Source of the DNA: a virus
Strand: one strand, 5' to 3'
Virus record (IMG/VR): IMGVR_UViG_3300019926_000010
Location: 873-64,872 of that record
DNA: 64,000 bases
Shown: positions 42,600-63,048 of the stretch, one piece after another
Layout of the letters: each line of letters starts with the position of its first letter
Position numbering within the stretch: the first letter of the stretch is position 1
The notes under the pieces: generated by a model
The model's database searches: none
Told to the model about the DNA's origin: nothing
The model's input: only the letters and a program-made list of their open reading frames with translations
Program-made: the position numbers and the translations under genes

Positions 42600-42643
42600 G
42601 GTCGCTGGACGGAATCGAACCGTCTCAGAAGGCCATTAGCGAC
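42600..42643 (-). ncRNA. Mini-tRNA element
   Basis: GTCGCT-AATGGCCTTCTGA-GACGG-TTCGATT-CCGTC-C-AGCGAC. Confidence 0.7.
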
Positions 42644-42652
42644 AGCCGCAGA

Positions 42653-42841
42653 TTAGATGTACGGGATCAGCGGGATGAAGTCCAGAGGCGGAACAAGGCC
42701 CGCCGCCGCAACGAAGAAGTAGATAATGAAGCCGATTAATGCGAGCTTCCCGACGATCAGCAAAAAGCCGAGAAGAATGAAGAGAAGTCCACCGATTACT
42801 GTGCCCACGATACCAAGAAGAAGTCTAACCAGAGCCGTCAT
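42653..42841 (-). CDS. Small membrane protein
   Basis: Almost entirely hydrophobic; ends VPPLDFIPLIPYI. Confidence 0.65.
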   Translation of the reverse strand: MTALVRLLLGIVGTVIGGLLFILLGFLLIVGKLALIGFIIYFFVAAAGLVPPLDFIPLIPYI

Positions 42842-43092
42842 ACGAACGGAATCACCGGAACCACGTCAACCGGGGGAACCACACCGAGAGCCGCGAGGAA
42901 GAAGTAGATGATCCCGACAGTGAGAACGAGTCCCACAACACCGAAGATGATGTTGAGAAGAATCACCAGAACCGCAAACTTTCCGAAGCTCCGTTTCATG
43001 TCACTGCTCATCTCACCGAAGTCGTCGTCAGTATTGATGTCCATGTCCATGCTCATCAGTTGTACCGCTCCTGGCAGAAGTGACACTTGCAC
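42838..43092 (-). CDS. Small membrane protein (paralogue of 42653..42841)
   Basis: Ends IYFFLAALGVVPPVDVVPVIPFV; the start is probably an internal Met. Confidence 0.65.
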   Translation of the reverse strand: MQVSLLPGAVQLMSMDMDINTDDDFGEMSSDMKRSFGKFAVLVILLNIIFGVVGLVLTVGIIYFFLAALGVVPPVDVVPVIPFV

Positions 43093-43218
43093 ATGGGTCC
43101 GTGACCCGGTTTATTCGGAATCCCCATGATTAGTCGCTCGTCTCCTCGTCGGTCGTCTGTTTGGTTACGCTCTCGAAGCCGCCGTTCTCGCTGTTTTCGT
43201 TGGTTTCTGTCATGGTTT

Positions 43219-44163
43219 TCACGCGCCTGCTTGTTTGCCGCCTTGTTCCATCCCACGTCGTCGTATCTTGTCACGGAGTTCATTGGCACACCGTCTGTTG
43301 ATCTGCTTCCGGAACTGGTGTAAGTCCAGTACCGCGTCTTCGTCCAGTAGAAGAGACGCGCCCTCTTCCTCACCGATGTCTCGGAGAACGCGCTGTGGTA
43401 GATCCTCCATGAGGGGCATTTCGAGTTTGCGGCCCTCGTCATTGACCATCTTCTCGATGGTTTTTTCAATGCGACGGTTAGATCCGGTGTACTTGTCAGC
43501 GAGTCTCGATTCGTCGCTGGGTCCACCGTTATCCGTACCGGCCTTGGCCGATTCGTGCTTCTCAGCGAACGCTTCGGTAATGAGTTTCGCCCGTGTGTCA
43601 CACGAAGCGTTCTTCATCACGACGCCTTCAGCAATTCCATCGCGGAACTGACTCTCGATCTCCTCGTAGTCGCTGGGGTTGATGTTTTCAGCGTCGTCAA
43701 CGTCGAGAACGGGGGCAACCGGCAGGTTACCGGCCTGGAACACGTCCATAGCTTCGCCGTGACGAAGCCATCCGCTCATGTCGTTTGGCCCGTCTTCGAT
43801 GAACACGTCGAAACCGAGGAACCGTGGCATCTCTTCCCACGGATAATCCAGCGTGTGAGAGTGCATCGACTCCCCGAACAGAGTCATGTCACCCAGGTTG
43901 TCAGCCAGATTGTAGAGCGTGTGCGCGTCGATCTCCCGAGACACCCACTCGATAGTGGGCCGGAAGTTCTTCGGCACATCCTCGTTCGGAACCGTCGAGT
44001 AGTCCAGATTTCGGGACCCGAAGGTGATCTCACGCGCGTCCGAGTCTACATGGATACGGAAGTTCGCTCCGTCCATCTTCTCGTGAACAACGACCTCTCC
44101 GTCGGAGAATAGTCCGTCTGTGTCCGGATGACCGAGCCGACGGATCTTCGGGTATTTCTTCAC
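43219..44163 (-). CDS. ATP-dependent RNA ligase (Rnl2-like)
   Basis: Motif I EKMDGAN, FGE, FDV, EGVVMK and RAK; the GTG start overlaps the upstream TGA. Confidence 0.88.
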   Translation of the reverse strand: MKKYPKIRRLGHPDTDGLFSDGEVVVHEKMDGANFRIHVDSDAREITFGSRNLDYSTVPNEDVPKNFRPTIEWVSREIDAHTLYNLADNLGDMTLFGESMHSHTLDYPWEEMPRFLGFDVFIEDGPNDMSGWLRHGEAMDVFQAGNLPVAPVLDVDDAENINPSDYEEIESQFRDGIAEGVVMKNASCDTRAKLITEAFAEKHESAKAGTDNGGPSDESRLADKYTGSNRRIEKTIEKMVNDEGRKLEMPLMEDLPQRVLRDIGEEEGASLLLDEDAVLDLHQFRKQINRRCANELRDKIRRRGMEQGGKQAGA

Positions 44164-44561
44164 TGCCACGTCGGGACCGGCGTTCCACCAGTCCACTTGA
44201 CACCGATCTCGTAGTCGATCACGTCTTCGATGTCTTCGATGTTCTCGATTCCGAACGAATCGAGGAAGTCGTAGAGCTGTGCATCCTCATCCTCCAGCCC
44301 GTCCGGAAGATCGAACTCCAGGTTGGGGATGTCGTAATCATCAGCACCGCCCACGTTGACGGGGATGACGACCTTGTATTCGCCCGAGAACTCACCACCC
44401 CGGCCAACCATCCGCGGTTCACCGAGCCACGCCTTCTCAGGGAACTGCTTCCCGGATAGCTCGTACACCGCTTCCGTGATCGCGGCGGGGCCGAGGCTCG
44501 TTTGTTCATCGCTCGATCCTCCGAAGCCGAAGAACTGACGGAGTTTGGATAGCAGAGACAT
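44160..44561 (-). CDS. Hypothetical protein
   Basis: ATG at 44561 (MSLLSKLRQFFGF...) inside the track ORF. Confidence 0.6.
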   Translation of the reverse strand: MSLLSKLRQFFGFGGSSDEQTSLGPAAITEAVYELSGKQFPEKAWLGEPRMVGRGGEFSGEYKVVIPVNVGGADDYDIPNLEFDLPDGLEDEDAQLYDFLDSFGIENIEDIEDVIDYEIGVKWTGGTPVPTWQ

Positions 44562-44606
44562 TGTACTACAGAGGGTCAACGACGGTGTGAGCCAGCCGTT
44601 GACTGA

Positions 44607-44675
44607 CACGGACTCCGGGATTTGAACCCGAGCAACCCCGTTCAGGGGCACTCTCCCAGGCTGAGTTAAGTCCGT
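44607..44675 (-). tRNA. Atypical tRNA, Phe(GAA)-like
   Basis: 7-bp acceptor ACGGACT/AGTCCGT, D-arm TAACTCAGCCTGGGAGAGT and T-loop TTCAAAT; short anticodon stem around CTGAACG. Confidence 0.5.
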
Positions 44676-44791
44676 CAATTTATTGAGCGCCAACGTTTCC
44701 TTCCCTATTCAGGGCGTGTCACACGGCGCTGATCTCACCTATTGCAATTGAGTCCCAAGAACTCTCGTTCAAGGTCTGAGGCCTAAGGTGA

Positions 44792-44867
44792 AGCCGGAAG
44801 CGGGACTTAGCACCCGCGTCTGTAACATCACAAGCTACCAATCTTATCTGTATTAGACTATTCCGGC
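44792..44867 (-). tRNA. Atypical tRNA, His(GTG)-like
   Basis: Acceptor GCCGGAA/TTCCGGC, anticodon stem GTAGC/GTTAC with loop TTGTGAT, T-stem GCGGG/CCCGC with a non-canonical 8-nt loop. Confidence 0.5.
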
Positions 44868-44868
44868 A

Positions 44869-44954
44869 TGGGAACGGGAGGATTTGAACGCTCCAAGGGC
44901 TTACGCCCAGTTTTTCTCACCCGTGCGTTCCAAGGTCCACGGGACGACGTTCCC
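44869..44954 (-). tRNA. Degenerate long-variable-arm tRNA-like element
   Basis: Acceptor GGGAACG/CGTTCCC, T-loop TTCAAAT and variable hairpin GGGC-GTAA-GCCC; anticodon arm unclear. Confidence 0.35.
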
Positions 44955-45149
44955 TCAAGTGAGGCTCACCACACCCCACAGTTACTTGTTGGTTGATTGG
45001 CGACCGAATGAACTTCGGAGAAATGGAGCTAAGTCTTGCTCATCTCCAATTTCATATAACCCGTACACCGACCAACCACTCCGGCCAACACACAATACGG
45101 TGAATTTCTATGACAGGTAACGTAGTTGTTTCCCCTATGACCGAGGGGA

Positions 45150-45194
45150 CGCCTCAACGAGGACTCGAACCCCGATTAATCAACCTGATGAGAC
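45150..45194 (-). ncRNA. Mini-tRNA element overlapping the endonuclease stop
   Basis: GTCTCA-TCAGGTTGATTAAT-CGGGG-TTCGAGT-CCTCG-T-TGAGGC. Confidence 0.6.
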
Positions 45195-45637
45195 AATCTA
45201 TTTTCAATTAACAATTCTTCAGAAATATTTGCTCGTTCTTTATTTCGAGGGTCAATTTGAGATTTAGGATTCATATTTATACTCATTTGACTTTTTGGGG
45301 CTTCATCGAATGGAATCCAGTATATCTCACTACTATATGGATTTCTTATCGCGTAAACGTCTATTTCATTTTCTGAATATTCTTTTCTATTAACTTCTCC
45401 ATCAGGTCCGTAATTTTGATTTCGTAACTCTACCCTTACAGAACCTTCAACTGTTGACTTAGGTTTGAAAGCAGTTTTACATTGTACCTTTAATAATTCA
45501 TTGCTTAAATCTGCAATTAAATCATATCGTTCATTATCTCCTACGGGTTCAGAGACGCTATATCCAAGTTTAAGAAGTTTTACCACTATTTTGTTTTCTG
45601 TTATAGTTCCTTGTCTAAGAGAACTTTCTCCCGACAT
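45176..45637 (-). CDS. PD-(D/E)xK endonuclease (homing-endonuclease-like, I-Ssp6803I type)
   Basis: G-x3-E...GYSVSEP...RYDLIAD...KVQCKT; AT-rich relative to the genome. Confidence 0.8.
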   Translation of the reverse strand: MSGESSLRQGTITENKIVVKLLKLGYSVSEPVGDNERYDLIADLSNELLKVQCKTAFKPKSTVEGSVRVELRNQNYGPDGEVNRKEYSENEIDVYAIRNPYSSEIYWIPFDEAPKSQMSINMNPKSQIDPRNKERANISEELLIENRLSHQVD

Positions 45638-45639
45638 TA

Positions 45640-45713
45640 CGTCTGGTCAAGGAGTCGAACCTCGCACAACACCGTTAACAGCGGCGTGCCCCCACCAAGG
45701 GGGCCTACCAGAC
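45640..45713 (-). tRNA. tRNA-Asn(GTT)
   Basis: Full cloverleaf: acceptor GTCTGGT/ACCAGAC, anticodon stem CGCCG/CGGTG with loop CTGTTAA, T-arm CGAGG-TTCGACT-CCTTG. Confidence 0.85.
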
Positions 45714-45979
45714 ACGATGCCGGGATGAAAACACCCGGCGATTATGACCGCTACCCAAACCAGCACGCCTCTTTCGAGGCAATAGAGGCCGCCAGGCCCC
45801 GTACTGGGGAATCTGTCGCTGGCAGATCCCCCTCAAATTGCCCTACTCGCTGAAGGGATGCTATCAGGCATCCACTCCACACGAGTAAACGTGCCCCGAC
45901 ACCATAAAGGTGCCGATTGAACAATGTGGTATGCTTTGATTAATGCGATGAACTATACAGACTGTTTATATAAGGGGGA

Positions 45980-45985
45980 TTTATA
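45980..45985 (+). promoter_or_regulatory. Putative TATA box of a leaderless transcript
   Basis: TTTATA about 26 nt upstream of ATG 46011; a second TTTATATAA lies at 45965. Confidence 0.45.
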
Positions 45986-46010
45986 CTCCTATACACGGGT
46001 AAGATTGAGC

Positions 46011-46613
46011 ATGGTAGATAAGGGATATGAAACTCACAGTAATGATGAGCCGATCCGAAAATGTCCTTACTGCGAGTGGGAAGGGGCGTCTCGTGGATTA
46101 ACGTTCCACGTATTGAACAAAAGCGACGAAAAGCATGATGAGAAATATGAACTGCCTGACGATTTTGAAGCATCTGAAGCCGAGATCGTCGGCTACGAGA
46201 ACGTTGATGTGGAGATGCCTGACTCCTACAACGTCGAACATAAAACCAGATATGTTTGCGATTATTGTGGGAAGATTTGTCGGGGGTCCGGTGGGCTGAA
46301 AGTCCACCTGCAACGTCTCGCTGGAGACGAAGTACATCCCGACGACGCAGAAGATCGAGAACCCGACTCCTTCCCACAATTCAAGGTCGGAGAAGACGGC
46401 CAACTCGTCCCACAAGACGATGCCTCGCTGGAGGTAGCCACAGGAGGCGCTGTTGGCGACGAGAGCGGATCTTTGGAAGAACAGGATGTCGTGCCCGTGG
46501 AGGAACTGGAACAGCTTAGAGACAGCTTCGTGGAGGAGGGAGACAACTATGACACTATCTCTCCCGGACAAGCCGCCCAACGTGTCCAGCAGATCATCAA
46601 CAAGTATCAGTAA
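46011..46613 (+). CDS. Tandem C2H2-like zinc-finger protein
   Basis: CPYC...GLTFHV...H and CDYC...GLKVHL...H. Confidence 0.75.
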   Translation: MVDKGYETHSNDEPIRKCPYCEWEGASRGLTFHVLNKSDEKHDEKYELPDDFEASEAEIVGYENVDVEMPDSYNVEHKTRYVCDYCGKICRGSGGLKVHLQRLAGDEVHPDDAEDREPDSFPQFKVGEDGQLVPQDDASLEVATGGAVGDESGSLEEQDVVPVEELEQLRDSFVEEGDNYDTISPGQAAQRVQQIINKYQ

Positions 46614-46754
46614 TCGAGTTTTATCGGAAGTCTTATAGTGCTGGATCACGTCTACTTGGTAGAGCGGTTATTCTCTCTTTCCGTCGTTGTAATACAGTGC
46701 TGTAATGCTGTGCTGTAGTGGGTACCTTCCTGACGTTAACAGCACCGCACTCCA

Positions 46755-46817
46755 ACTACAATATACAGCAACACAATACAGTACCTATTACGTATATTGT
46801 TACAATGGCGTGAGCGG
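46755..46817. repeat. 63-bp intergenic repeat, copy 2
   Basis: 58 of 63 positions identical to 19447..19509. Confidence 0.9.
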
Positions 46818-46864
46818 ATGAAGTCGGTTTGCTAACAGGATAACTGCTTTGACTTACTCTAACT

Positions 46865-47368
46865 ATGTCTTTTGACGAAGACCAAGGAACGAATGTTTCC
46901 TCTGGTACCGACAACGCGACTACCTTTCACGCACAGGATGCACCAAACACCAAACGACTCGATGGTCCCGCTGAAACGAAGCGAGAGCAGATGAAACGCC
47001 TGTTCACCGAGTATCAAACTGGTACTCGTAACGGGAAGTGGCGCGAAGAGAAGAAGATCCGGAAGCAGGATAACTCTGCCATGTTCGGTGCGGTTGCGGG
47101 TCAGCTCGAACTGCCTCGGATTCTCCGCGAAGAAGGGCAGAAATTCCTGGATGACATGAACCTCCGGGAGTACGGTCACCCGACTCGGCTTGTTGTGTTC
47201 TGTCTTTGCGCTCAGTTATACAACAAGAAGGCCGCCGACGAGTACCGCTACCACCCGAACCGCAACGACGACAAGAACCCTGATCGGTTCCTCGACCTCG
47301 CTGACGATCTCGGACTACGGTACAGTCAAATCATCTCGGTATACAACAAAGTGGGTCAGGATCTTTAA
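46865..47368 (+). CDS. Truncated TFB-like protein (linker + one cyclin-fold repeat)
   Basis: TTF...KREQMKRL...VAGQLELPRILREEG parallels the TFB pattern TTI...QREKMQRL...MASALGLP..VRETA (from memory). Confidence 0.55.
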   Translation: MSFDEDQGTNVSSGTDNATTFHAQDAPNTKRLDGPAETKREQMKRLFTEYQTGTRNGKWREEKKIRKQDNSAMFGAVAGQLELPRILREEGQKFLDDMNLREYGHPTRLVVFCLCAQLYNKKAADEYRYHPNRNDDKNPDRFLDLADDLGLRYSQIISVYNKVGQDL

Positions 47369-47493
47369 TGGGTAAAATGTCACCCAAGATTCCGTGCAGT
47401 GAGTGCGGTGATCGAGCGCGAAAACGATTCAACGGGAAGCTATACTGCTCGGATTGCTTCGATGACCTCGTTCCACTTGACTTCAAAGGATAA
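47368..47493 (+). CDS. Zinc-finger microprotein
   Basis: Manually translated as MGKMSPKIPCSECGDRARKRFNGKLYCSDCFDDLVPLDFKG; TAATG overlaps on both sides. Confidence 0.6.
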   Translation: MGKMSPKIPCSECGDRARKRFNGKLYCSDCFDDLVPLDFKG

Positions 47494-47732
47494 TGCCTCT
47501 CTGTAAATGCTGTCGTGATTCGTGTGATTGTTGTAAAAGGTGTGATCGGTGTGGTCAATCAATGGATGATAGGCCAGATCGTACCGAAAGTGTAGCAAAT
47601 TCTCAAGAACTTCTTGGTATTCTTATGGAAGTTCTCGGTAACGACCTCCAAAATGGAAAGTCGATACTTCATATCGACATGGATAACGACATTTCTAATA
47701 GTCAGAAAAAAATTGAGTTGGTTCTTTCGTGA
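47493..47732 (+). CDS. Cys-rich small protein
   Basis: N-terminal CKCCRDSCDCCKRCDRC. Confidence 0.55.
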   Translation: MPLCKCCRDSCDCCKRCDRCGQSMDDRPDRTESVANSQELLGILMEVLGNDLQNGKSILHIDMDNDISNSQKKIELVLS

Positions 47733-48202
47733 GTCAGTTCACGATAGTCGTAGATGGTAGAGAGCAGAAGGGTCACGGTTACACCTTCGACTCATGGCCC
47801 GTCGATACCGTCCGAAAGAACCTCTCTGACATGGGTTCTGAAGGTGATTACTCAATTGAAGGATACGAAGATCAGTTCGCAGTAGAACGAAAATCGCTCG
47901 GTGATCTCGCTACCTGTGTCGGGGCGAAGCGGGACGAACACTTCGAGCCGCAGGTTCAACGTGGCGTTGACCGACTTGACCGATATGCAATTGTCGTTGA
48001 AGCACCACGCTGGGAGATCGAGAAGGGGAACTACTTCTCTCACGTTCATCCGAACTCGGTCCTCGGAACGATTGACTCCTGGTCGAGGCCGAGTCATTAC
48101 GGAGTTGACTTCCACCTCTGCGACGACAAGTATAAGGCTGAGGTTAAAACTTATACACTGCTCGCAAAATGGAAGGATGAAGCTGATCGAGGTGTTCTCT
48201 GA
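47729..48202 (+). CDS. ERCC4/XPF-type structure-specific nuclease
   Basis: IVVDGREQ, GDYSI and VERKSLGDL (ERKx3D signature). Confidence 0.92.
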   Translation: MSQFTIVVDGREQKGHGYTFDSWPVDTVRKNLSDMGSEGDYSIEGYEDQFAVERKSLGDLATCVGAKRDEHFEPQVQRGVDRLDRYAIVVEAPRWEIEKGNYFSHVHPNSVLGTIDSWSRPSHYGVDFHLCDDKYKAEVKTYTLLAKWKDEADRGVL

Positions 48203-48203
48203 G

Positions 48204-48695
48204 TCACTCGGTTAACTCATTGAGCGGCGGTTTCACTGGATGGTTCCGGTCCTTTTCGCATACTGATTCTCGGTAATCCATGAACTCCGACATGAATTGA
48301 TCGTGGTGTTGGTCGAGAACGAAGTCTTCGAGGAGTTCAGTGTAATCTGTCTCCGGATCTCGACCACGTTTTCCGATGCACTTGTGGAAGAGCATGGAGT
48401 CGAACCACACTGCTTCCTCGAATTTTCCATCTTCCACGAGTTCCCACCCTTCATAGCCCGGTGATTCTAACCTCGGATAGCGACTGCTACCGGGCCTCAT
48501 GGTGAGATATACCTGATCGGCTACCTCGAATCGCATTGTGAAGTCCCAATCAGTACCGACTGAAAGTTCGTCGTCAACGTCGAGAAGGGCGGCGGCCTCG
48601 TCCAAGATGTCTTCGGTGATGTGGACGTACCGTTTATTTAGACCACTCGTCGTGGTGTAGAAGTGATACTCGTCGTGGGTGAATTTGTCATTCAT
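48204..48695 (-). CDS. Hypothetical protein
   Basis: ATG at 48695 (MNDKFTH) inside the track ORF. Confidence 0.6.
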   Translation of the reverse strand: MNDKFTHDEYHFYTTTSGLNKRYVHITEDILDEAAALLDVDDELSVGTDWDFTMRFEVADQVYLTMRPGSSRYPRLESPGYEGWELVEDGKFEEAVWFDSMLFHKCIGKRGRDPETDYTELLEDFVLDQHHDQFMSEFMDYRESVCEKDRNHPVKPPLNELTE

Positions 48696-48912
48696 TTTTA
48701 TTTTCGTACTCAATTTCTCTAATAGCGTCGAGTATGCTTCCAAGACACTTGATACCACTATCGGGGATGTTTTCCGTGCTACCTTCAATCGACCAAGGCC
48801 CGAAGGTTGCTACTTTATCCGTTTCTTTTTCTGGATTATAGGTAACTGTATAATTGTCAATCGTAAATCTCCCTTCTCCAGTTTCTTTCAATAGTTTTAG
48901 TTGATCTTTCAT
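48688..48912 (-). CDS. Hypothetical protein (AT-rich)
   Basis: Track ORF coupled to its neighbour. Confidence 0.55.
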   Translation of the reverse strand: MKDQLKLLKETGEGRFTIDNYTVTYNPEKETDKVATFGPWSIEGSTENIPDSGIKCLGSILDAIREIEYENKNE

Positions 48913-49201
48913 AATTAGTTTCTTTCACTCCTCATTTATAGCGAGAGCGGCGTCAAGGACTCGCTTTCGATATGAGGAATCTTCTTCTCCGTTCATCCGT
49001 AATACACCGTGCAGTTCACCAAGTCTTGTTAGTTCGTCTCCGGTTGCCGGTTCTATTTTAGGCACGTCAGTCATATTCATCAGAGAATGGACAGTCGTTC
49101 TTGGGGGTCGTATTCCAACATATACAACGTACACCTCGTACAAACGAGAAATCCGCAGTATATACACTTCCGTTCGTTGGTGTTAGTTTCACTCATTGGA
49201 A

Positions 49202-49588
49202 TTAATATTCTCCAGGCGGTGGACACCCATCGTCGTTTTTCTGCATGAAGCGATTAGCGGCAACGACGGCTTTCGTCATGCCTGATTCGCCCTTCCCGCA
49301 GTTTCCCTGAATGAGGTAACTCTCGGGTCCGAACGTCGAAGTAAACAACGCTCGCCAGTGACCACGATCCTCTTGAAAGTCAGCGATAACCCGGTATGGA
49401 GTTCCTTTGTACTGCCACTTCAGGAATTGCGGTACGTTCGTCAGTTGATGCCAGCCGTCGGGTGGTAGCTCTTCTAATTCACGTCCCGGTCGTGGTCCGG
49501 GTGGCCGGAACGGGATCTGTACGTAAGTCTCCCCGCCGCCCTTGTGTAAGGCCGCGGAGGGTTCGTCTCCGACTGATGGTAAGGCCAT
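49202..49588 (-). CDS. Hypothetical protein
   Basis: Track ORF in the operon. Confidence 0.6.
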   Translation of the reverse strand: MALPSVGDEPSAALHKGGGETYVQIPFRPPGPRPGRELEELPPDGWHQLTNVPQFLKWQYKGTPYRVIADFQEDRGHWRALFTSTFGPESYLIQGNCGKGESGMTKAVVAANRFMQKNDDGCPPPGEY

Positions 49589-49591
49589 TTG

Positions 49592-51579: not shown

Positions 51580-51588
51580 TTTACTAAG

Positions 51589-52447: not shown

Positions 52448-52449
52448 GA

Positions 52450-53591: not shown

Positions 53592-53593
53592 GA

Positions 53594-53854: not shown

Positions 53855-53866
53855 GCTCGGAGTGAG

Positions 53867-55761: not shown

Positions 55762-55791
55762 TGTTCTACTGCCTTGGTCCCCGATGGACCA

Positions 55792-55835
55792 TGCCCTTCC
55801 ACGGAATCGAACCGCGGAGCCGCCACTAAGGGTCA
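55792..55835 (-). ncRNA. Mini-tRNA element
   Basis: CCCTT-AGTGGCGGCTC-CGCGG-TTCGATT-CCGTG-G-AAGGG. Confidence 0.65.
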
Positions 55836-55875
55836 GCCGGATTTGCAAATTTCCCGAAAATCGCCTCGCGTTCCT

Positions 55876-56583: not shown

Positions 56584-59389
56584 TATCACCGTATCCGAGG
56601 AGTGCCACCTTCTCCCGAACATCGTCTTCTTCCATCTTGGTGAAGTCCATGTTCAGGTCGTGGAGGGCCATCATCAACTCCTCAACGTGGCCCTTGTACC
56701 CCTTGTTGTAGGACAGACTGTCGATGACGTTGTAGATTTCAGAGTCATCGTCCCAGTTCGGGGTGTCGATAAGTCGCTGGTAGTGGCTCTCACCCTTCTT
56801 TAGTGAGTAAGAGTTGAACTTCTTGGAGTGAAGCCGACCGTACTTGAACGCGATTATGCTCTTCCGTCCAACGTATTCCTTGTCAGCGACGAACTCGATC
56901 TTGTCCATCGCCTTCCTGTCGGCAACAGCCCACAACACGTCGGGCTGTTCTCCGTCGTCAAAGTGCATCTGACCGAGTAGGTCTTCCGTGAAGTATTCCC
57001 GAATCTCGGATCGTTCGTCGGTAATCAGCTTCTTGCCTTCGATGTTCGTGACCTGAGCGAAGATTACCAGTCGATCATCCTCGATCATATCCACGAGCGT
57101 CATTGCACCGTCTTCGGTGGCGATGACCGAGTTGTAGGAACGGGCTTTGTATTCGTCAGGAAGGAACACAGCCGCACAGTCTTTCAGAGCCTCGTATTCC
57201 TCGTTGGAACAGGACGCAATTGCGGCGTTGTCAGCGAAGTCGTAGTTGTCCGAGATGTTCCTTTCACCCGACCGAGGGAAGAGAACTAACTCGTTTCGTC
57301 GGTGGATTCCGTTTCCATCTTCACCGAACCGATCTCTGACTTTCTTCACCGGATACCGAGCGTCGATCTTGTGACCGCTCTCGGTTCGGATCTTGAGGAC
57401 GTGATCTTCCACGTCGTCCGGCTTCCCCCGAGACTTCTTATCGGTCCCATCGGATCGTTTGTTTTTGCTGGCTATTGCATCCGGGATGTCCCACTCGTCG
57501 TCCTCGTCGTCATCACGACGGTACGGAACGTTCGGAAGCCGCTTGAACCCGTACAGATCCTCGTAAGTTTCGTACTTGTGGGCACCGGATACCACGATGA
57601 TCTCGCTGTCATCGTAGGTGTTCCAGAGCGTCTTTGCCCGGTCCATGAACTTCCCACCGGTCGAAGCCGCCATGTAGATATTCGATCCAGTGGAGTCAGC
57701 GAGCAGATCACCGAGCTTTTTCTCACTGCGTCCCTTCTGTCGTGATACGTTGCATCCGTTTCGGGGAGCGTGGGAAAACTCGGTGAACAGACCGTGGATC
57801 TTCTGGTAGGTTTCGGGAATATCGTAGCTCCCGATCACTTCGATGGGATCGTCGTCGGTGTACTTCTTAATACACTGACATCGGTACTCCCATTCAGAAA
57901 TAGTCATTCCTACATCATCATCGTAATTTCGGAACTCGTTGTCCTCCTTCTGAAGGAACCGAGTGAACCGTTTCAGGTTTTTGAACACTCCGTGAGGACC
58001 ATGCCTCTTGAGAACTTTCCGGAAAGTCTTCCACTCTCCGGGGTTATCCTGCGGTGCTGAGAGAACGTCTTCCGGACCGTCGATGTTTTCCAGAAACTCA
58101 GCGGCTACCTCAAGCTCGCGCTCTTTCACGACCTCCTTGATGTGCTTGAAGAACCTCGTGTTTGCAGTGTCCTTCTGGAGTCGGTCCCGGTCGGCGGTCG
58201 GCTGGGGGAGGGGAACGTCGTCCTCGTGGAGGTCAACATCCTCCTCTTTCTTCCCCCTATTCGGACCTTCAATGATAAGTCCCTGTTCGTTGTGGATCTG
58301 CACCTTGACGTTCCAGAGTGAGCGAACACTAACCCGCGTGTTCCGCTCAATGGGCATACTAACCAGGAAACAGTCCGGGTCATCGTAGCCGCTCGGAACA
58401 TCAGGTCCCGCAACGATGGTGTACTCACCGGGTCGGTTCACTACAATCGGCGGGTCGTTGTAGAGTTCTTCCAGCGTGTTTCCGCCGTACTCTTCCTCGG
58501 TGATCGTTTCACCGTCTCGGTACTCCTTATAGAGAAGCGGAACCCGGAGAGCCTGACTGTATTTCGCCAGCCAACCTTGGAACTTGTTCAAGTCGATCCC
58601 ACCCTCAGATTCTTCGAGGACCGGGATCTCAAATCGGGTTCCACGGAAGTTCTCAGGAATGTCGTTCGGAATCTCTTCAAGTCCTGAGAGATCCGTCAGG
58701 AAGGCGATGCCCTCCTTGTCAATGTCCGGAGCGTCAACCTTCCGGGTCTTTGTCCATCCCGTGATGTCACCGTACTTCCCGGCGGGCTTCACGAACGTCA
58801 GGGCACCGAGGCCCATCTTCCCACCGGTATCAGCATCGTAGGACACACCCGACATTCCCGTCGTGTTGAACGCTTTGTCCAACTCGTGGGCAGTCATCCC
58901 GATGCCGGGGTCCTGGTAGACGATCTTCCGTTCGTCTCTGTGAAGCTCGACCTCGATGGTCGGGTTGTAACCGAGAGAACTGGCGGCCTCCATGATTTCA
59001 CTCAGCGGTCGAGGAAGCTCGATAATTCGACCATCCTCGGTCATCACGTCCCGAGTGAGCCACTCCTCACCGTAATCCGGGTGGTGTGAAATGAGCAACT
59101 TCGCCGCTCGAATAACCGCAGTCTCGGCGTTCTGGTTGTACTCTCGGGGGAACGCCTCGTCACTGCTGTAGATCAGCTCTGATAGATGCTCGTGAATGGC
59201 ATCCTCAGCGATGTCTCGCTTACTTTTGCCCGTCGAACCCGTTTCTTGGGCCAACGCGCTGTTTTCGTCTATGACGTTTAATTCGTCCTTTTCAACTGCC
59301 GATGCCGACGACGTGATCTCACCGAACTCCTGACTGCTCGGCGTAGTCGGCACTTTTCCGTTCTGGTTTTGGGTGTCCTGTTGGGACAT
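56573..59389 (-). CDS. GHKL (Hsp90-like) ATPase-domain protein, rIIA-like
   Basis: REYNQNA (N box), QDPGIGM (G1), GKMGLG (G2) and GTRFEIPV (G3), followed by a long C-terminal region. Confidence 0.75.
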   Translation of the reverse strand: MSQQDTQNQNGKVPTTPSSQEFGEITSSASAVEKDELNVIDENSALAQETGSTGKSKRDIAEDAIHEHLSELIYSSDEAFPREYNQNAETAVIRAAKLLISHHPDYGEEWLTRDVMTEDGRIIELPRPLSEIMEAASSLGYNPTIEVELHRDERKIVYQDPGIGMTAHELDKAFNTTGMSGVSYDADTGGKMGLGALTFVKPAGKYGDITGWTKTRKVDAPDIDKEGIAFLTDLSGLEEIPNDIPENFRGTRFEIPVLEESEGGIDLNKFQGWLAKYSQALRVPLLYKEYRDGETITEEEYGGNTLEELYNDPPIVVNRPGEYTIVAGPDVPSGYDDPDCFLVSMPIERNTRVSVRSLWNVKVQIHNEQGLIIEGPNRGKKEEDVDLHEDDVPLPQPTADRDRLQKDTANTRFFKHIKEVVKERELEVAAEFLENIDGPEDVLSAPQDNPGEWKTFRKVLKRHGPHGVFKNLKRFTRFLQKEDNEFRNYDDDVGMTISEWEYRCQCIKKYTDDDPIEVIGSYDIPETYQKIHGLFTEFSHAPRNGCNVSRQKGRSEKKLGDLLADSTGSNIYMAASTGGKFMDRAKTLWNTYDDSEIIVVSGAHKYETYEDLYGFKRLPNVPYRRDDDEDDEWDIPDAIASKNKRSDGTDKKSRGKPDDVEDHVLKIRTESGHKIDARYPVKKVRDRFGEDGNGIHRRNELVLFPRSGERNISDNYDFADNAAIASCSNEEYEALKDCAAVFLPDEYKARSYNSVIATEDGAMTLVDMIEDDRLVIFAQVTNIEGKKLITDERSEIREYFTEDLLGQMHFDDGEQPDVLWAVADRKAMDKIEFVADKEYVGRKSIIAFKYGRLHSKKFNSYSLKKGESHYQRLIDTPNWDDDSEIYNVIDSLSYNKGYKGHVEELMMALHDLNMDFTKMEEDDVREKVALLGYGDNDA

Positions 59390-59414
59390 AATGTCTCCTC
59401 CCCACAGCGGGGAA

Positions 59415-59463
59415 AACGTCACCGGGGAGTCGAACCCCGAACTTCCGCCTATCGGGTGACGTT
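59415..59463 (-). ncRNA. Mini-tRNA element
   Basis: AACGTCAC-CCGATAGGCGGAAGTT-CGGGG-TTCGACT-CCCCG-GTGACGTT. Confidence 0.7.
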
Positions 59464-59829
59464 AATCATCTCCGTTTTGTCCTCTCGGACTCGCTCTTCA
59501 ACGGATTCGATTTGGGTTTGGGTCCAGCGGTTGGATTTGATGGCCTCCATCCGGTCGAACTTGATCGGATATGCGGTGACCACCTCCTCCCTGATCGTAT
59601 CGACAGCGACTTTGAACGTGATACCACCTTCTGTATAAATAATCGCGGTATCAGAATCTCCTCCGGGGTTCTCTCCTCGATCACCCTCTTGAATTGCATC
59701 GGAGATGAGCCGCTTGTCGATGCACCGTTTCTCGTTTTCGTAGTACAACCGTTGCCGAACGTGGATAGTCAGACAGAAAGTAGATACCAAGTCCCGTCGC
59801 TCCTCAACGGGCCGTTGGTTGGTAGACAT
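59449..59829 (-). CDS. DUF4258-like protein
   Basis: HVRQRL...I...LISDAIQEG...KVAVD....VVTAYP pattern. Confidence 0.5.
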   Translation of the reverse strand: MSTNQRPVEERRDLVSTFCLTIHVRQRLYYENEKRCIDKRLISDAIQEGDRGENPGGDSDTAIIYTEGGITFKVAVDTIREEVVTAYPIKFDRMEAIKSNRWTQTQIESVEERVREDKTEMINVTR

Positions 59830-60014
59830 CAGACTGGGCTAAAAATCGCCCGTAGCGGGTGCCACTCTCCCGGAACTACTGGTTGTCGTTCCGGTTCTTC
59901 AGAAATACCTGCCCCAACACCACCTGCCCCTCCTGGTGGATCGTCGTCGTTGTTGTTATCGAACGTTACACTGTCTTCCTTTCCGCTACTTGGGTTGTGA
60001 TAGTTTCTCTTCAT
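59829..60014 (-). CDS. Small hypothetical protein
   Basis: Track ORF whose stop overlaps the next start. Confidence 0.45.
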   Translation of the reverse strand: MKRNYHNPSSGKEDSVTFDNNNDDDPPGGAGGVGAGISEEPERQPVVPGEWHPLRAIFSPV

Positions 60015-60060
60015 AGGTTAACTCCTCAAGTTAAAGGAGGCGGGGGCCTTCCCGACGGTA

Positions 60061-60120
60061 ACCGCACTACATAATACCGCACCTAATACAGTGCTGTATT
60101 ACTGTAGTGAGCGGCCCCAA
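60061..60120. repeat. Partial third copy of the intergenic repeat family
   Basis: GTGAGCGGCCCCAA is shared with 19502-19515; AATACAGTGCTGTA and ACCGCACT are shared with the 46690-46750 region. Confidence 0.65.
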
Positions 60121-60162
60121 CCGACCTCCTGTACTAAAAATCAACAGCAGAGGGAAGGGACG

Positions 60163-61161
60163 TTAGAGCTTCTGGAGCGCATCCATGTTGAACGCCGATT
60201 CCAGGCGCTCAACCCGTGCCTCTAACTCCTCGATCCGACTGGTTTCGGCTTCGGGTTCCTCTGATGTTTCTTCCTCGGTCACTTCACCGCCATCAGTTGT
60301 GGCGGTCATCTGTTCCTCGTAGTCACCTGAACGAAGCTGACGGCCTCGGTTCTTCAGATCCTCGTAGCCGTCTTCACCGACGAACTTCTGAATCCCGTTC
60401 CGGACTGTGTTCTTCGAGCAGTCCACTTCCTCAGCGATGTCAGTGTTTGTCCGACTCGGATCACGGAGCTTGAGCAGTGCCGACTGCATCTGCATTGTAT
60501 GCTCCACGGCAGGCTGTTCTTCCAGGTACTCCTGGGCCGCCTTCGGTTCCATCGGTAGATCCGGTTCGGCCTCGGACTCCTCGCCCTCACCGGTATCAGC
60601 ATCCGCCTCTGTCTCCTCGGGTTCACTGCCCTGTGTCTCGTCGGAATCGTAGAAGTCCACCGGGCTGTAGATGACTTCCTCGCCGTCCTCTGTTTCGAGG
60701 ATCGGGACGAAGATCGGGTCCACCTCGTCCTTGGAATAGTCCACATTGAACTCCTCAGCGGCCACATCAGCCTGAATCTCGTGAACTCCGACGATTGTGA
60801 TGCCGAAGTGTTCGCTTCCGGCTTCCTTCCACATCTCCTCGTCGGGGGTCGAGAAGTCCTCTCGGTACTTCCGAAGGCCGTACATATCCTTCTCCCCGGT
60901 GATCTCCTCGATCAGCTCTTGTTTCTGATCGTTGAAGAACCGATAGTCGTCCACTGCACCGGACACTCCGGCATCGGTTCCCTTCACCGTGAGGTCGTCG
61001 TTCTGGAGGATCTGCGGCCCGTTGCGTCGGTTGGCGTCACAGGCGATCCAGTACACCTCGTGGATCTCTGAACGCTCATCGAAATACTGGTTTCCACCAG
61101 TAGCGTCGTTTTCTTGGTCGTTTTCGGTACTTCCGTCTTCCGCGGTCTGGTCTGCGAACAT
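60163..61161 (-). CDS. Very acidic protein with HTH and C-terminal coiled coil
   Basis: TNTDIAEEVDCSKNTVRNGIQK (HTH) and RIEELEARVERLE. Confidence 0.75.
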   Translation of the reverse strand: MFADQTAEDGSTENDQENDATGGNQYFDERSEIHEVYWIACDANRRNGPQILQNDDLTVKGTDAGVSGAVDDYRFFNDQKQELIEEITGEKDMYGLRKYREDFSTPDEEMWKEAGSEHFGITIVGVHEIQADVAAEEFNVDYSKDEVDPIFVPILETEDGEEVIYSPVDFYDSDETQGSEPEETEADADTGEGEESEAEPDLPMEPKAAQEYLEEQPAVEHTMQMQSALLKLRDPSRTNTDIAEEVDCSKNTVRNGIQKFVGEDGYEDLKNRGRQLRSGDYEEQMTATTDGGEVTEEETSEEPEAETSRIEELEARVERLESAFNMDALQKL

Positions 61162-61241
61162 TTTAGTTTGGGTAGCAACTGCATGGTCATCTGCCAATAC
61201 GTCGATCAGAAAGGAAGTGGGTTAGAGCTTCATCACCCAAG

Positions 61242-61307
61242 TGGAGTCCACGGGACTCGAACCCGCTCGCGTCTCGCTTACCTGATTCGGTCGGCCAACC
61301 GGACTCC
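61242..61307 (-). ncRNA. tRNA-like element with intact top half
   Basis: 7-bp acceptor GGAGTCC/GGACTCC+A and T-arm GCGGG-TTCGAGT-CCCGT; the 34-nt middle has no valid anticodon arm. Confidence 0.65.
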
Positions 61308-61434
61308 GATTGTTAACACGGTGAGGTGGCGAAATCTCACCGCGGCCAGCGGCCAAGGTTGCCAGCCTTGTTTAACCGCCAACTCGGTCCTTTTGTACCC
61401 CGTCGGGGGCTGTCGTTTTTCAGACCAGACCTAA

Positions 61435-61475
61435 TACTACGCCGAGGAATCGAACCTCGAAATACCATTCGTAGC
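61435..61475 (-). ncRNA. Mini-tRNA element
   Basis: GCTACG-AATGGTATTT-CGAGG-TTCGATT-CCTCG-G-CGTAGT. Confidence 0.7.
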
Positions 61476-61540
61476 ACGGGACCGGGAACCACCCAGTCCC
61501 ACGAAAGGGGGTCGGAGAGTGTGACGGGGGCACGGTGCCC

Positions 61541-61593
61541 CCAGCACCTCGAAAGGAATCGAACCTACCGAGGCTAAACCGCGTTGACGCTGG
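61541..61593 (-). ncRNA. Mini-tRNA variant with extended T-arm
   Basis: CCAGCG-TCAACGCGGTTTAG-CCTCG-GT-AGG-TTCGATT-CCT-TT-CGAGG-TGCTGG. Confidence 0.5.
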
Positions 61594-61846
61594 TGTTCAC
61601 GGTGGTTTCACAGTTTGGGCACTTTTGGATCTTCTCGAAAATGTTGAACTTTTGATCGCAGTTCCAACACTTCGCAACTCCACGGAGTGTCATGTTACCG
61701 CCAGCTATACACTGCACGCCGATACCGAGCGGGCCACGCTTCCGTTTTGTCCGAGCAGTACATCTCTCGCTGACGGTCGGCGTAGGACTTTTCAGCCTTT
61801 TTCTTCACCGCGTCGGAGGCCGTCGGTCGGGTAGCTGACTTCGCCA

Positions 61847-62026
61847 TTACGCCTCGACCTCCGGAATCTCGATCTCCTCGATCTCGGTGACCTCCTCACC
61901 TTCGTGGTATACCGTCGCCTCGGGGTCTTCGAGGGCTTCTTCCACGAAGTATCGGATGCTGGTGTCTCGCTCTGTGCCATTCTCGAACGCAATCGTGACT
62001 TCTCGGATTAGGAGTTTATCTTCCAT
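61847..62026 (-). CDS. Small acidic protein
   Basis: Manually translated as MEDKLLIREVTIAFENG...; fits composition better than the track frame. Confidence 0.55.
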   Translation of the reverse strand: MEDKLLIREVTIAFENGTERDTSIRYFVEEALEDPEATVYHEGEEVTEIEEIEIPEVEA

Positions 62027-62067
62027 CGAAAGGTGCCCTCCGGGTATGTTAGCCCTTCATTGAGCAG

Positions 62068-62113
62068 TAACTCACGGAGAATCGAACTCCGAAAACGTCA
62101 CCAGACTGAGTTA
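62068..62113 (-). ncRNA. Mini-tRNA element
   Basis: TAACTCA-GTCTGGTGACGTTTT-CGGAG-TTCGATT-CTCCG-TGAGTTA. Confidence 0.7.
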
Positions 62114-62250
62114 AATATTGAGGTGTTCTATTGCTTCAGTTGCACCGTCACGACCGAGGATTTCGATGAGTGCCCGAACTCTGTGGGCGGCGAGATTGGT
62201 ACCCGTGTCCATCTTCACCACGTCGGCCTCGGTCTGAAACTCACCGAAGT

Positions 62251-62661
62251 TCATCTGTAATGGTGAATCGCGTCCCGAAGAACCGCCTCGTCGTAGTGAT
62301 CTCGGTGAAGGTAGTGGGCCAGTTCGTAGTCATGGTACCCCTCCGGGTTCTCGATGGTGTCAGTCTTCACGAGAACCATGTTGTAGTCGTGCTGTAGGCC
62401 GAGGTGGGTGTCGTGCTGGGCGATCTTCGCTTCCCGCGGATACCCGACACTCACTAACGCATGACCGATAGGACTCATTTTGAAGTCCGACTTGTGAGGT
62501 GCCTGATCTGCCATTGCATGGGCCATCTCAGCCATCTCAGTCGGTGATAAGTCGTCACGGACTCGATCTCGATGCGGCTTGATGGACCGACCCGTAGCCA
62601 TCTTGATGATTTCGTTGAACGTTACCTGCGGCTCGTCGTCGGTGGGTTCTTCTGCGAACAT
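62251..62661 (-). CDS. Hypothetical His-rich protein
   Basis: ATG 62661 (MFAEEP) inside the track ORF. Confidence 0.55.
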   Translation of the reverse strand: MFAEEPTDDEPQVTFNEIIKMATGRSIKPHRDRVRDDLSPTEMAEMAHAMADQAPHKSDFKMSPIGHALVSVGYPREAKIAQHDTHLGLQHDYNMVLVKTDTIENPEGYHDYELAHYLHRDHYDEAVLRDAIHHYR

Positions 62662-62663
62662 TG

Positions 62664-62975
62664 TTACGCTTTGACTGAAACTTCGTTGATTGCATCGGCC
62701 TTCGACTCGGGCCGAGCGTCGATCTCCGTGATAGTTGCACCAGTGAAAGTACCCATCTGCTGGGTGGTGGACTGACTGTAACCCTCCCACCCAGTGAATT
62801 TGAACACTTTCCCGTTCGGGGTACGGAAGCCGTACACAGCCCATCCGTAGCCCCACAGAATGGCCGATCCATCCGAGAACGTCTCTATTTCCATGTTATT
62901 CGCCTGTCCTGACCCACCGCCGTTGTAGAAACGGCTGGTGAGATCGTTGTTACTTAGCGTCATAGGACTCTCCAA
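62664..62975 (-). CDS. Hypothetical protein
   Basis: Track ORF; LWGYGWAVYGFR...GWEGYSQSTTQQM. Confidence 0.6.
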   Translation of the reverse strand: MESPMTLSNNDLTSRFYNGGGSGQANNMEIETFSDGSAILWGYGWAVYGFRTPNGKVFKFTGWEGYSQSTTQQMGTFTGATITEIDARPESKADAINEVSVKA

Positions 62976-63007
62976 CCCCTCAAACCACTGCGGTTATCAT
63001 CGGGAAG

Positions 63008-63048
63008 GCCGAGGGAGGGAATCGAACCCTCACTTAATCCAACTCGGG
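63008..63048 (-). ncRNA. Mini-tRNA element
   Basis: CCGAG-TTGGATTAAGT-GAGGG-TTCGATT-CCCTC-C-CTCGG. Confidence 0.65.

Follow-up and report, generated by a model that had tools for sequence, protein, structure and literature searches.

The 64,000-nt window analysed here derives from a halovirus (a haloarchaeal tailed virus) and carries nine anticodon-less mini-tRNAs, E1 to E9, among its early and middle genes (Table 1). These probably serve as cis-acting t-elements, at which tRNase Z of the host, possibly together with RNase P, would cut to punctuate polycistronic viral RNA. Within the literature that could be searched, such elements are undescribed for archaeal viruses, and the novelty claimed in an earlier note on this DNA holds up to that extent.

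Table 1 Mini-tRNAs, tRNAs and tRNA-like genes of the window
Feature	Position	Strand	Evidence
E1 mini-tRNA	42601..42643	-	R3 40.8 bits, E 8e-9; MFE fold acceptor + T arm
tRNA-like element, shortened anticodon loop	44607..44675	-	Rfam tRNA 41.9 bits
tRNA-His-like gene, tRNA island	44792..44867	-	ARAGORN; Rfam tRNA 39.4 bits
E2 mini-tRNA	45150..45195	-	R3 31.9 bits
tRNA-Asn	45639..45714	-	ARAGORN
E3 mini-tRNA	55793..55833	-	R3 51.9 bits
E4 mini-tRNA	59416..59462	-	R3 28.9 bits out-of-sample, E 2e-5
E5 variant	61243..61307	-	Descriptor match; models match T arm only
E6 mini-tRNA, AAUGG linker	61434..61477	-	R3 41.3 bits; R2 31.9 bits (non-seed)
E7 variant	61541..61593	-	Fold; R2 14.7 bits; R3 T loop only
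E8 mini-tRNA	62068..62113	-	R3 19.2 bits out-of-sample, E 0.015
E9 mini-tRNA	63008..63050	-	R3 35.2 bits; folds

Number and placement of the elements

All nine elements are present where the earlier note had placed them, each on the coding (minus) strand. That strand contains 11 copies of the T-arm core GGTTCRANTCC and the plus strand a single one; chance would give roughly 0.12 per strand. A broader descriptor, combining the T loop TTCRANN with a 5-bp T stem, an acceptor of at least 5 bp and a linker of 4–45 nt, finds 12 matches on the minus and 2 on the plus strand, well above the 1.16 expected for both strands from 200 dinucleotide shuffles; with linkers of at most 20 nt there are 7 matches versus 0.43 expected from such shuffles. 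Such numbers lie well outside what chance would give.

Between 54 and 64 kb, elements occupy five of the ten gaps of at least 55 nt, and AT-rich promoter-like repeats are found in other gaps. The next ATG lies 26 nt beyond E4, 31 nt beyond E3, 41 nt beyond E8, 44 nt beyond E9 (ATG 62963), 81 nt beyond E5 and 87 nt beyond E1 (ATG 42513). Three elements, not two as first reported, overlap the upstream stop: E2 overlaps the 3' end of an AT-rich PD-(D/E)XK ORF, whose TAA (45176–45178) falls in its linker, the E4 linker contains a TAG (59449–59451), and the first three bases of E8 are themselves a stop. E9 abuts a TAA (63051–63053), while E1 starts 9 nt past the stop of ORF 42653–42841. Hairpins follow E2 directly (45131–45149), E3 (55775–55791, then ATG 55761) and E7 (GC-rich, 61526–61542), and a CCCC/GGGG hairpin (59397–59415) separates E4 from ATG 59389 of an HSP90/GHKL-like gene immediately downstream. 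E3 is flanked by orthologues of HSTV-2 genes 91 and 90, and E7, E6 and E5 form three tandem copies in a 412-nt ORF-free stretch.

A common fold

Seven copies share a fold that consists of a 5–8 bp acceptor, an A-N-U-G-G linker, a 5-bp T stem and a canonical T loop, without an anticodon arm. For instance, E1 combines a 6-bp acceptor and A.C junction with an AAUGG linker, a 5-bp T stem and a UUCGAUU loop, while E8 has a perfect 7-bp acceptor and a 3-bp mini-D hairpin with a UGGU loop. E3 and E9 have only five acceptor pairs each; an alternative 8-bp long-range acceptor for E9 would span 63007–63081. The two copies already singled out as deviant, E5 for its longer middle and E7 for its extended T arm, are matched by the models through the T arm only. 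E5 has a 7-bp acceptor, an intact T arm and a 34-nt middle, giving it a size between tRNA and mini-tRNA, and E7 has a 5-bp acceptor and a T arm of 3 bp, an internal loop and 5–7 bp. Acceptor and T arm appear in the minimum free energy (MFE) fold of seven of the nine elements, including E6 (z -2.45); E5 prefers an alternative long hairpin, and thermodynamic z-scores are modest throughout (-0.4 to -2.5).

Covariance models recover copies on which they were not built. Model R2, seeded with E3, E9 and one element each from HF2, HRTV-7 and HSTV-2, picks up six copies outside its seed: E6 and E1, both at 31.9 bits (E 1e-5), E2 (22.5 bits), E4 (22.2), E8 (16.7) and E7 (14.7). The final model, R3, built without 5S-leader seeds, finds E4 and E8 out of sample. 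Stem sequences vary freely across the family; the T loop and the A-N-U-G-G, which is unpaired, do not vary.

Relationship to the host 5S t-element and other systems

R3 also matches, at 44–48 bits, a 38–39 nt mini-tRNA that several Haloferacaceae carry in the spacer between 23S and 5S rRNA and that ends 3 nt before the latter, and R2 matches the spacer mini-tRNA in Halorubrum and Halobellus as well. In H. volcanii, tRNase Z cleaves the 5S-leader t-element (Hoelzle et al. 2008, as related in PMC4326828), and in engineered constructs flanking t-elements free exact-ended RNA in vivo via RNase P and tRNase Z (PMC4326828, PMC4946936). Our in silico comparison supports the viral and haloarchaeal elements as one structural family, sharing a 5–6 bp acceptor, an A.G junction, an ANYGG linker, a 5-bp T stem, GGTTCGAYTCC, the lack of an anticodon arm and the same host clade. 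They differ in that the viral elements sit between protein genes, 26–88 nt before start codons rather than 3 nt before a mature RNA, and at nine per 21 kb rather than one per rRNA operon; cleavage is known for the 5S t-element and predicted for the viral ones. TafA/TafE-like (fimbrial) genes of the hosts are also preceded by this arrangement, an element followed by a CCCC/GGGG hairpin and then the ATG. Hoelzle et al. 2012 (Biochimie) reportedly found that tRNase Z did not cut further tRNA-like elements predicted computationally in H. volcanii when assayed in vitro.

More distant likenesses exist. In mitochondria, tRNAs or tRNA-like structures such as the plant t-elements set mRNA ends within polycistronic RNA via RNase P and RNase Z (PMC1920247, PMC3790967), but these belong to another domain of life and the plant elements are nearer tRNA size. 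RNase P and RNase Z also cut the mascRNA and MEN-beta RNAs (Rfam RF01684), which mimic acceptor and T arm around a reduced middle; the Rfam mascRNA-menRNA model aligns with E4 end to end at 27.6 bits, under the gathering cut-off of 42.5, although mascRNA derives from a vertebrate nuclear lncRNA and is not homologous to the viral elements. Closer to hand, HF2 shows other intergenic signals in the early and middle operons of hafunaviruses. Its class I/II intergenic repeats (PMC8707807) are AT-rich promoters lacking a tRNA-like fold, and its hammerhead ribozyme, annotated in AF222060.2, gives the same operon a second device that cuts RNA.

Conservation and transcripts in related viruses

The search of related halovirus genomes suggested earlier finds the family in other Hafunaviridae, namely HF2, HSTV-2, HRTV-7, HCTV-6 and IMG/VR relatives, where all significant matches fall in the early region and on its coding strand. 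Copy number is 7–9 here, 5 in the half-complete contig L028 and 2–3 in other hafunaviruses. Among 25 distinct copies, 95.6% of cells are paired, a figure inflated because the set was picked by a structure-aware model, versus 62% in shuffles and 42–55% in slid controls; both-side changes number 91 cells, versus 26 (shuffled) and 12–17 (slid). Orthologues defined by synteny, independently of the covariance model, also bear compensatory changes, bearing out the claim that stems differ while pairing is kept. The E8 orthologue (L028 2933–2979) is 94% identical amid flanks of 66–76% and replaces A-U by G-C at acceptor pair 7. E3 orthologues (L028 8561–8598, HF2 2906–2944) show compensatory T-stem changes between unalignable flanks, and the E4 syntenic site (L028 4926–4963) holds a mini-tRNA with different stems.

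HF2 has two such mini-tRNAs, 2906–2944 and 4375–4414, both unannotated in its record AF222060.2. In published RT-PCR, transcript F1 comprises CDS 005 only, with its cDNA primer (2937–2924) inside the first element, and attempts to extend F2 in the 5' direction beyond 3073 failed, which together point to a break in continuity at the 3' side of that element. F2 passes through the second element. Primer extension places a 5' end at 4384, inside the second element and at neither predicted cut site, which its authors read as a transcription start.

A model of cis-acting punctuation and its alternatives

The elements would be transcribed within long minus-strand early and middle RNAs. The acceptor stem would stack on the T arm, and the D-loop-like A-N-U-G-G could form a tRNA elbow with the T loop; host tRNase Z would recognise this stack and cut just 3' of each element. 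The upstream cistron would then retain a compact mini-tRNA as its 3' end and the downstream cistron would begin with a short leader, often with a GC hairpin first, both of which may be stabilising. The likeness to the host 5S element makes such cutting of viral mRNAs likely, and host enzymes would be needed, since the scanned ORFs include no homologue of RNase Z or RNase P. Where this would cost no stop codon, RNase P may act additionally at the 5' end of the element. At E2, E4 and E8, where stops lie inside the element, a 5' cut would leave non-stop upstream mRNAs, and a better fit is cutting by tRNase Z alone, at the 3' side. In animal mitochondria, polyadenylation completes stops truncated by a cut; we know of no report of this in haloarchaea. 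The punctuation by host nucleases proposed earlier is partly supported, by the t-element family, the conservation and the HF2 boundary, and needs changing for RNase P at these three sites. The ORF-free tandem E7-E6-E5, not needed for separating mRNAs, counts against punctuation, as do the five-pair acceptors of E3 and E9, the H. volcanii elements reportedly left uncut, the passage of F2 through the second HF2 element and the 5' end mapped at 4384.

An unlikely reading is that the conserved fold acts in cis uncut, as an exonuclease cap, a platform for proteins that bind tRNA, such as modification enzymes or the CCA-adding enzyme, or a means of coupling translation to the next cistron. Upstream ORFs are indeed read into E2, E4 and E8 up to their stops, F2 spans the second HF2 element in at least some molecules, and several elements lie 26–44 nt before starts, beside hairpins and SD-like purine runs. 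Yet the 5S-leader t-element, the closest relative to have been characterised, serves as a signal for cleavage, and F1 and F2 break at the first HF2 element. To our knowledge, acceptor/T-arm mimics have no uncut role in archaea. We think it unlikely that the elements are made for release, with stable mini-tRNAs and the structured E7/E6/E5 spacers working in trans as decoys, sponges or viral small RNAs; tRNA-directed host defences would be the target. Expanded copy number in this lineage, the tandem stretch and a tRNA island beside an RNA ligase, which would suit a setting where tRNA damage matters, speak for release, but known anticodon nucleases recognise an anticodon arm, which the elements lack, and the E5–E7 spacers are not conserved in L028. 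Stems free to vary, and so offering no conserved sequence-specific target, and hosts that employ such a module in cis ahead of 5S rRNA and of fimbrial genes leave the note's decoy alternative without specific support.

Decay offers another origin: the graded series from tRNA-Asn through the odd His-like and short-anticodon-loop tRNAs and 65-nt E5 to 40-nt minis suggests descent from tRNA genes by internal deletion. That the elements are now functionless remnants is nonetheless already disfavoured and very improbable, given compensatory maintenance of both stems, conserved islands amid diverged flanks, strict coding-strand orientation in all relatives and invariant unpaired A-N-U-G-G and T loop. 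Equally little credence goes to a role as DNA, be it in promoters, in recombination or as attachment sites for an integrase. Integrases do target tRNA genes in their 3' halves, and the HF2 5' end at T-4384, read as a transcription start, lies inside an element and has a promoter-like motif a short way upstream. However, the sole integrase (25678–26685) has its own adjacent 3'-tRNA fragment near 26815–26842 (+), a candidate attP partial tRNA. The attP partial tRNA of hafunaviruses (HF2 HrrHF2_450) is tRNA-derived and has a T arm, but comprises a 3' part only, adjoins the integrase and matches a host tRNA, whereas the nine elements are complete minihelices with both acceptor strands, far from the integrase. 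Strand bias and compensatory pairing indicate RNA, and archaeal promoters have no internal T-box-like element.

tRNAs and tRNA-like genes in the same genome

Under the punctuation model, real and degenerate tRNAs of the same strand would behave alike. The discriminator of tRNA-Asn (45640) lies 2 nt before ATG 45637 of the PD-(D/E)XK ORF, and a cut there would give that mRNA a 2-nt leader. The element with the shortened anticodon loop has 5 nt where the Rfam tRNA model has 9, and is followed by a hairpin (z -2.75) and ATG 44561. The tRNA island adjoins the RNA ligase.

Mini-tRNAs of the early region

The earlier note had placed nine mini-tRNAs on the minus strand, and all nine were found there (E1 to E9, table). 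A descriptor comprising a TTCRANN T loop, a perfect 5-bp T stem, an acceptor stem of at least 5 bp and a linker of 4-45 nt matched 12 times on the minus strand and twice on the plus strand, against 1.16 matches for dinucleotide shuffles with both strands summed; with linkers of 20 nt or less, 7 matches were observed against 0.43 expected. For the T-arm core GGTTCRANTCC, 11 minus-strand occurrences and a single plus-strand one compare with an expectation of about 0.12 per strand. Two other candidates lie within ORFs, score poorly with the covariance models and were left out of the count (table). One of these, 48384-48437, falls in an ORF of 184 aa that has no Pfam match, and combines an 8-bp acceptor with a T stem rich in G.U pairs; the models fit only its T loop (11 bits), and it is probably a chance match or a relic.

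Three covariance models of the family were built in succession. R1, from a single sequence, was over-specific to that sequence. Because MAFFT set the 5' acceptor strands wrongly when every copy was aligned, R2 was seeded gaplessly, with an explicit structure, from five elements of equal geometry (E3, E9, HF2 2906, HRTV-7 26586 and HSTV-2 26119). R3 was built from 29 matches drawn from the window, eight relatives and four host loci. With filters off, R2 recovers the non-seed window copies at the scores tabulated, matching E5 by its T arm alone; R3 gives the out-of-sample copies E4 and E8 28.9 bits (E 2e-5) and 19.2 bits (E 0.015), respectively. From the R2 and R3 scores, seven copies are therefore canonical and two, E5 and E7, are deviant, just as the sequence-only reading had it. 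A 17-nt E3 pattern found four true orthologues and six chance matches in IMG/VR.

Seven of the nine elements show the complete fold: an acceptor-like stem of 5-8 bp, coaxial with a T stem of 5 bp that carries a canonical loop of 7 nt (GGTTCRANYCC). A near-constant A faces a G at the acceptor/T junction. The anticodon arm is absent, its place being taken by a short linker (9-16 nt) with a conserved A-N-U-G-G, whose D-loop-like GG is present in 23-25 of 25 distinct copies; this motif can form a 3-bp mini-D hairpin in E3, E4 and E8, and four to eight more bases separate it from the T stem. Two invariant G-C pairs close the T stem on a UUCGAYU loop, and the 3' acceptor strand follows after one unpaired base. 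No CCA is encoded. Thermodynamic z-scores are modest, as is usual for tRNAs too, and stability by itself fails to set the elements apart from shuffles.

Neither ARAGORN nor Rfam RF00005 called any of the nine as a canonical tRNA, that is, a cloverleaf with D and anticodon arms. Against the mascRNA-menRNA family (RF01684), E4 aligns end to end at 27.6 bits, below the gathering cut-off of 42.5, and the other eight give no match. Nor are they attP-type partial tRNAs, as all nine possess both acceptor strands and lie 16-37 kb from the integrase gene. Such a partial tRNA does exist elsewhere: the 3' tRNA fragment 130 nt from the integrase gene, with a CCCC-UUCG-GGGG hairpin after it, probably serves this virus as attP and is separate from the mini-tRNAs.

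Coordinates of the mini-tRNAs and of other features discussed (elements by start position; distances from element end to the next ATG)
Feature	Position	Strand	R2 (bits)	To ATG (nt)	Remarks
E1	42601	-	31.9	87	
E2	45150	-	22.5		GC hairpin directly 3'; upstream stop codon in linker
E3	55793	-	seed	31	GC hairpin directly 3'
E4	59416	-	22.2	26	GC hairpin directly 3'; upstream stop codon in linker
E5	61243	-	T arm	81	34-nt middle
E6	61434	-	31.9		
E7	61541	-	14.7		GC hairpin directly 3'; extended T arm
E8	62068	-	16.7	41	upstream stop codon is its first three bases
E9	63008	-	seed	44	
Tyrosine integrase	25678-26685	-			Pfam Phage_integrase and SAM-like domains
3' tRNA fragment	26803-26856	+			T arm GAGGG-UUCAAAU-CCCUC, acceptor 3' strand
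RNA ligase ORF	43219-44196	-			Pfam RNA_ligase, E 1e-20; directly downstream of tRNA island
Rejected candidate	44298-44363				
Possible tRNA-like sequence	44868-44957	-			between E2 and tRNA-His
PD-(D/E)XK endonuclease ORF	45176-45637	-			AT-rich, GC3 0.18
Rejected candidate	48384-48437	-			
Gap without mini-tRNA	60015-60162				148 nt, AT-rich repeat
HF2 (L004), first element	2906-2944				
HF2 (L004), second element	4375-4414				
L028 elements compared	2933-2979; 8561-8598				
Host elements with CCCC/GGGG hairpin and ATG (examples)	L047 1501-1543; L048 1501-1540; L089 1501-1542, 2200-2240; L081-L084; L088				
tRNA cluster, L029	16800-18020	+			three full tRNAs, two shortened tRNA-like sequences (55, 61 nt)

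Conservation among relatives

The window holds 64 kb of a 65,389-bp virus record. Between about 64 and 28 kb, its genes run on the minus strand. It encodes a GHKL/HSP90-like protein of 938 aa, which shares 38% identity with homologues in HSTV-2, HRTV-7 and HCTV-6 (Hafunaviridae, Mincapvirus), and a Rad3-like helicase, which shares 53% identity with its HF2 counterpart and 73% with that of the IMG/VR contig L028, the closest relative. Megablast of the region against phage records gave no match, and the HSP90-like protein as a lone query against IMG/VR gave nothing. A helicase alignment found nothing among prokaryote genomes and only HF2-like loci among metagenomes. Since an HSP90 alignment recovered no further close relative from IMG/VR, L028 serves as the sole close syntenic comparator.

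Searching related halovirus genomes with a covariance model, as the earlier note had proposed, revealed the same elements in Hafunaviridae relatives, always on the early region's coding strand. There are two each in HF2 and in five HF2-like genomes, one to three in Mincapvirus genomes, and two each in the IMG/VR contigs L029 and L030; L028 has five in a half-complete contig. Over 25 distinct copies, 95.6% of cells are paired, a percentage inflated by selection of the set with a structure-aware model, compared with 62% in shuffled and 42-55% in slid controls; two-sided changes number 91 cells, against 26 shuffled and 12-17 slid. The claim that stems differ among copies while pairing is retained is thereby borne out, and a dispersed DNA repeat or MITE spread by recent duplication is set aside on the same grounds.

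Because structure-aware selection inflates pairing, synteny-defined orthologues were compared as well. E8 and its L028 counterpart (2933-2979) are 94% identical between flanks of 66-76% identity, and acceptor pair 7 changes from A-U to G-C. E3, L028 8561-8598 and the first HF2 element form an identity island within unalignable flanks, with compensated T-stem changes, and the hairpin that follows them changes in sequence but keeps its position. The site upstream of the HSP90-like gene is occupied by E4 here and, in L028, by a mini-tRNA with entirely different stems. Across the HF2 group, the second element has the variants GCUCCG/CGGAGC, GCCCCG/CGGGGC and GCUCUG/CAGAGC.

A host family that includes the 5S leader element

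The same class is common in hosts. R3 gave at least one match at E <=1e-3 in 49 of 61 Haloferacaceae genomes. Top-scoring matches include mini-tRNAs of 38-39 nt (44-48 bits) that follow 23S rRNA and stop 3 nt short of the position at which Rfam places 5S rRNA, although R3 contained no rRNA-leader (5S) sequences among its seeds. R2 also finds the 5S-leader mini-tRNA in Halorubrum and Halobellus (E 0.0075-0.035 in 10 kb). A single model thus picks up genuine 5S-leader elements as well as the viral copies, and by this test the viral copies fall into the structural family of the t-element. In Haloferax volcanii, the 5S-leader element directs tRNase Z to process the 5' end of 5S rRNA, and when it flanks a crRNA on both sides, RNase P and tRNase Z cut it in vivo to give exact ends (PMC4326828, PMC4946936). 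Viral and 5S-leader elements have the same oddities (an A.G junction, an ANYGG linker, no anticodon arm), and they differ in where they end: 3 nt before 5S in the host, 26-88 nt before start codons in the virus.

Further strong host matches precede TafA/TafE-like fimbrial genes whose products have SipW-type signal peptides. Their layout of element, CCCC...GGGG hairpin, about 8 nt and ATG matches that of viral E4. These host matches often occur in same-strand clusters spaced at 1.5-2 kb, as illustrated by five within 10 kb in each of the host genomes G043 and G038. Weak matches in host genomes were set aside; most of them correspond to the 3' half of a genuine tRNA. With a threshold of 29 bits, the virus has about 80-90 matches per Mb and hosts about 0.7 per Mb, the latter a lower bound under filters stricter than those used for the virus. 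Other predicted tRNA-like elements of H. volcanii, examined by Hoelzle et al. in 2012, were reportedly not cut in vitro.

Placement among genes and published transcripts

Between 54 and 64 kb, elements fill five of the ten gaps of at least 55 nt (E9, E8, E7-E6-E5, E4 and E3); other gaps contain AT-rich, promoter-looking repeats. The repeat in the gap at 60015-60162, noted also at 19447-19509 and 46755-46817, is a candidate promoter, comparable to the class I intergenic repeats of HF2. Given the stop codons inside E2, E4 and E8, RNase P cuts at the 5' borders of these elements would yield non-stop mRNAs; cleavage by tRNase Z at the 3' side would avoid this. The PD-(D/E)XK ORF, which begins 2 nt after a tRNA-Asn and stops in the E2 linker, looks like a homing-endonuclease insertion that tRNA processing would excise as an mRNA of its own: tRNase Z cuts at tRNA-Asn and E2 would free the cistron with a near-leaderless 5' end.

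A search for RNA sequencing runs of this virus or of HF2 returned none, but published HF2 work offers indirect hints at the RNA level. Each of its two mini-tRNAs is followed by a tetraloop hairpin and a conserved GUGACACCGAUG start region; neither is present in the AF222060.2 annotation, which does annotate a hammerhead ribozyme of the same operon. The published RT-PCR transcript F1, primed at 2937-2924 inside the first element, covers the first CDS only, and nothing 5' of 3073 could be added to the 12.7-kb transcript F2; together these results place a break in RNA continuity at the 3' side of the first element. However, F2 passes through the second element, which speaks against a simple cleavage picture. 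A primer-extension 5' end at T-4384, published as a transcription start, falls 9 nt inside the second element.

Proposed mechanism and alternatives

The elements are probably cis-acting t-elements that host tRNase Z cuts on the 3' side, with RNase P acting only where its cut is harmless. This would leave the upstream mRNA with a compact tRNA-like 3' end and the downstream mRNA with a short, often hairpin-capped leader; both ends may be stabilising. The viral ORFs scanned included no homologue of RNase Z or RNase P. It is unlikely, by comparison, that the elements act in cis as structures left uncleaved. Covariation contradicts the notion that they are decaying tRNA genes, which we regard as very improbable, and a role as DNA-level sites is scarcely credible for a virus with a 3'-tRNA fragment, apart from the elements, next to its integrase gene near 26820.

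That the elements are released to act in trans, as decoys or small RNAs, is favoured by the expansion of copies in this lineage and by the ORF-free E7-E6-E5 tandem, yet stems vary freely and hosts use the module in cis, making this decidedly unlikely as the function of the elements. It is a long shot, too, that the expanded array serves, besides mRNA punctuation, as a production line for trans-acting RNAs, above all at the E7-E6-E5 tandem. There, host RNase P and tRNase Z would free stable mini-tRNAs, perhaps with a CCA tail, along with two structured RNAs from the spacers (about 68 and 127 nt), which might titrate tRNA-directed host defences or serve as viral small RNAs. Were this true, the array would be an archaeal-virus counterpart of the tRNA-linked small RNAs of herpesviruses.

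As a kind of processing signal, the t-element is already known; conserved, multi-copy t-elements in Hafunaviridae were not found in the searchable literature, Rfam 15 or the HF2 annotation. Should the proposed cuts occur, no archaeal viruses before the hafunaviruses would have been shown to depend on tRNA-type punctuation for dividing long early transcripts into separate mRNAs, and the cuts would also account for discrete HF2 early transcripts that known promoters leave unexplained. The abundance of the class in Haloferacaceae, with frequent same-strand clusters ahead of fimbrial genes, raises anew the question of whether haloarchaea use t-elements as a general mRNA-processing signal. As compact natural processing cassettes of about 40 nt, the elements lend themselves to direct tests in Haloferax volcanii and in the HF2/Halorubrum system, which can be cultured.

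Other tRNA-related features

The sequence at 44868-44957 may be a further, degenerate tRNA-like sequence: the halves of its 7-bp acceptor (GGGAACG/CGUUCCC) are about 85 nt apart and its T arm is damaged near UUCAAAU. Neither ARAGORN nor Rfam called it. The shortened tRNA-like sequences of L029 retain an anticodon-arm-like hairpin and are another form intermediate between tRNA and mini-tRNA. HF2 has RtcB in place of the RNA ligase encoded here, and the presence of one or the other suggests that tRNA repair matters to these viruses.
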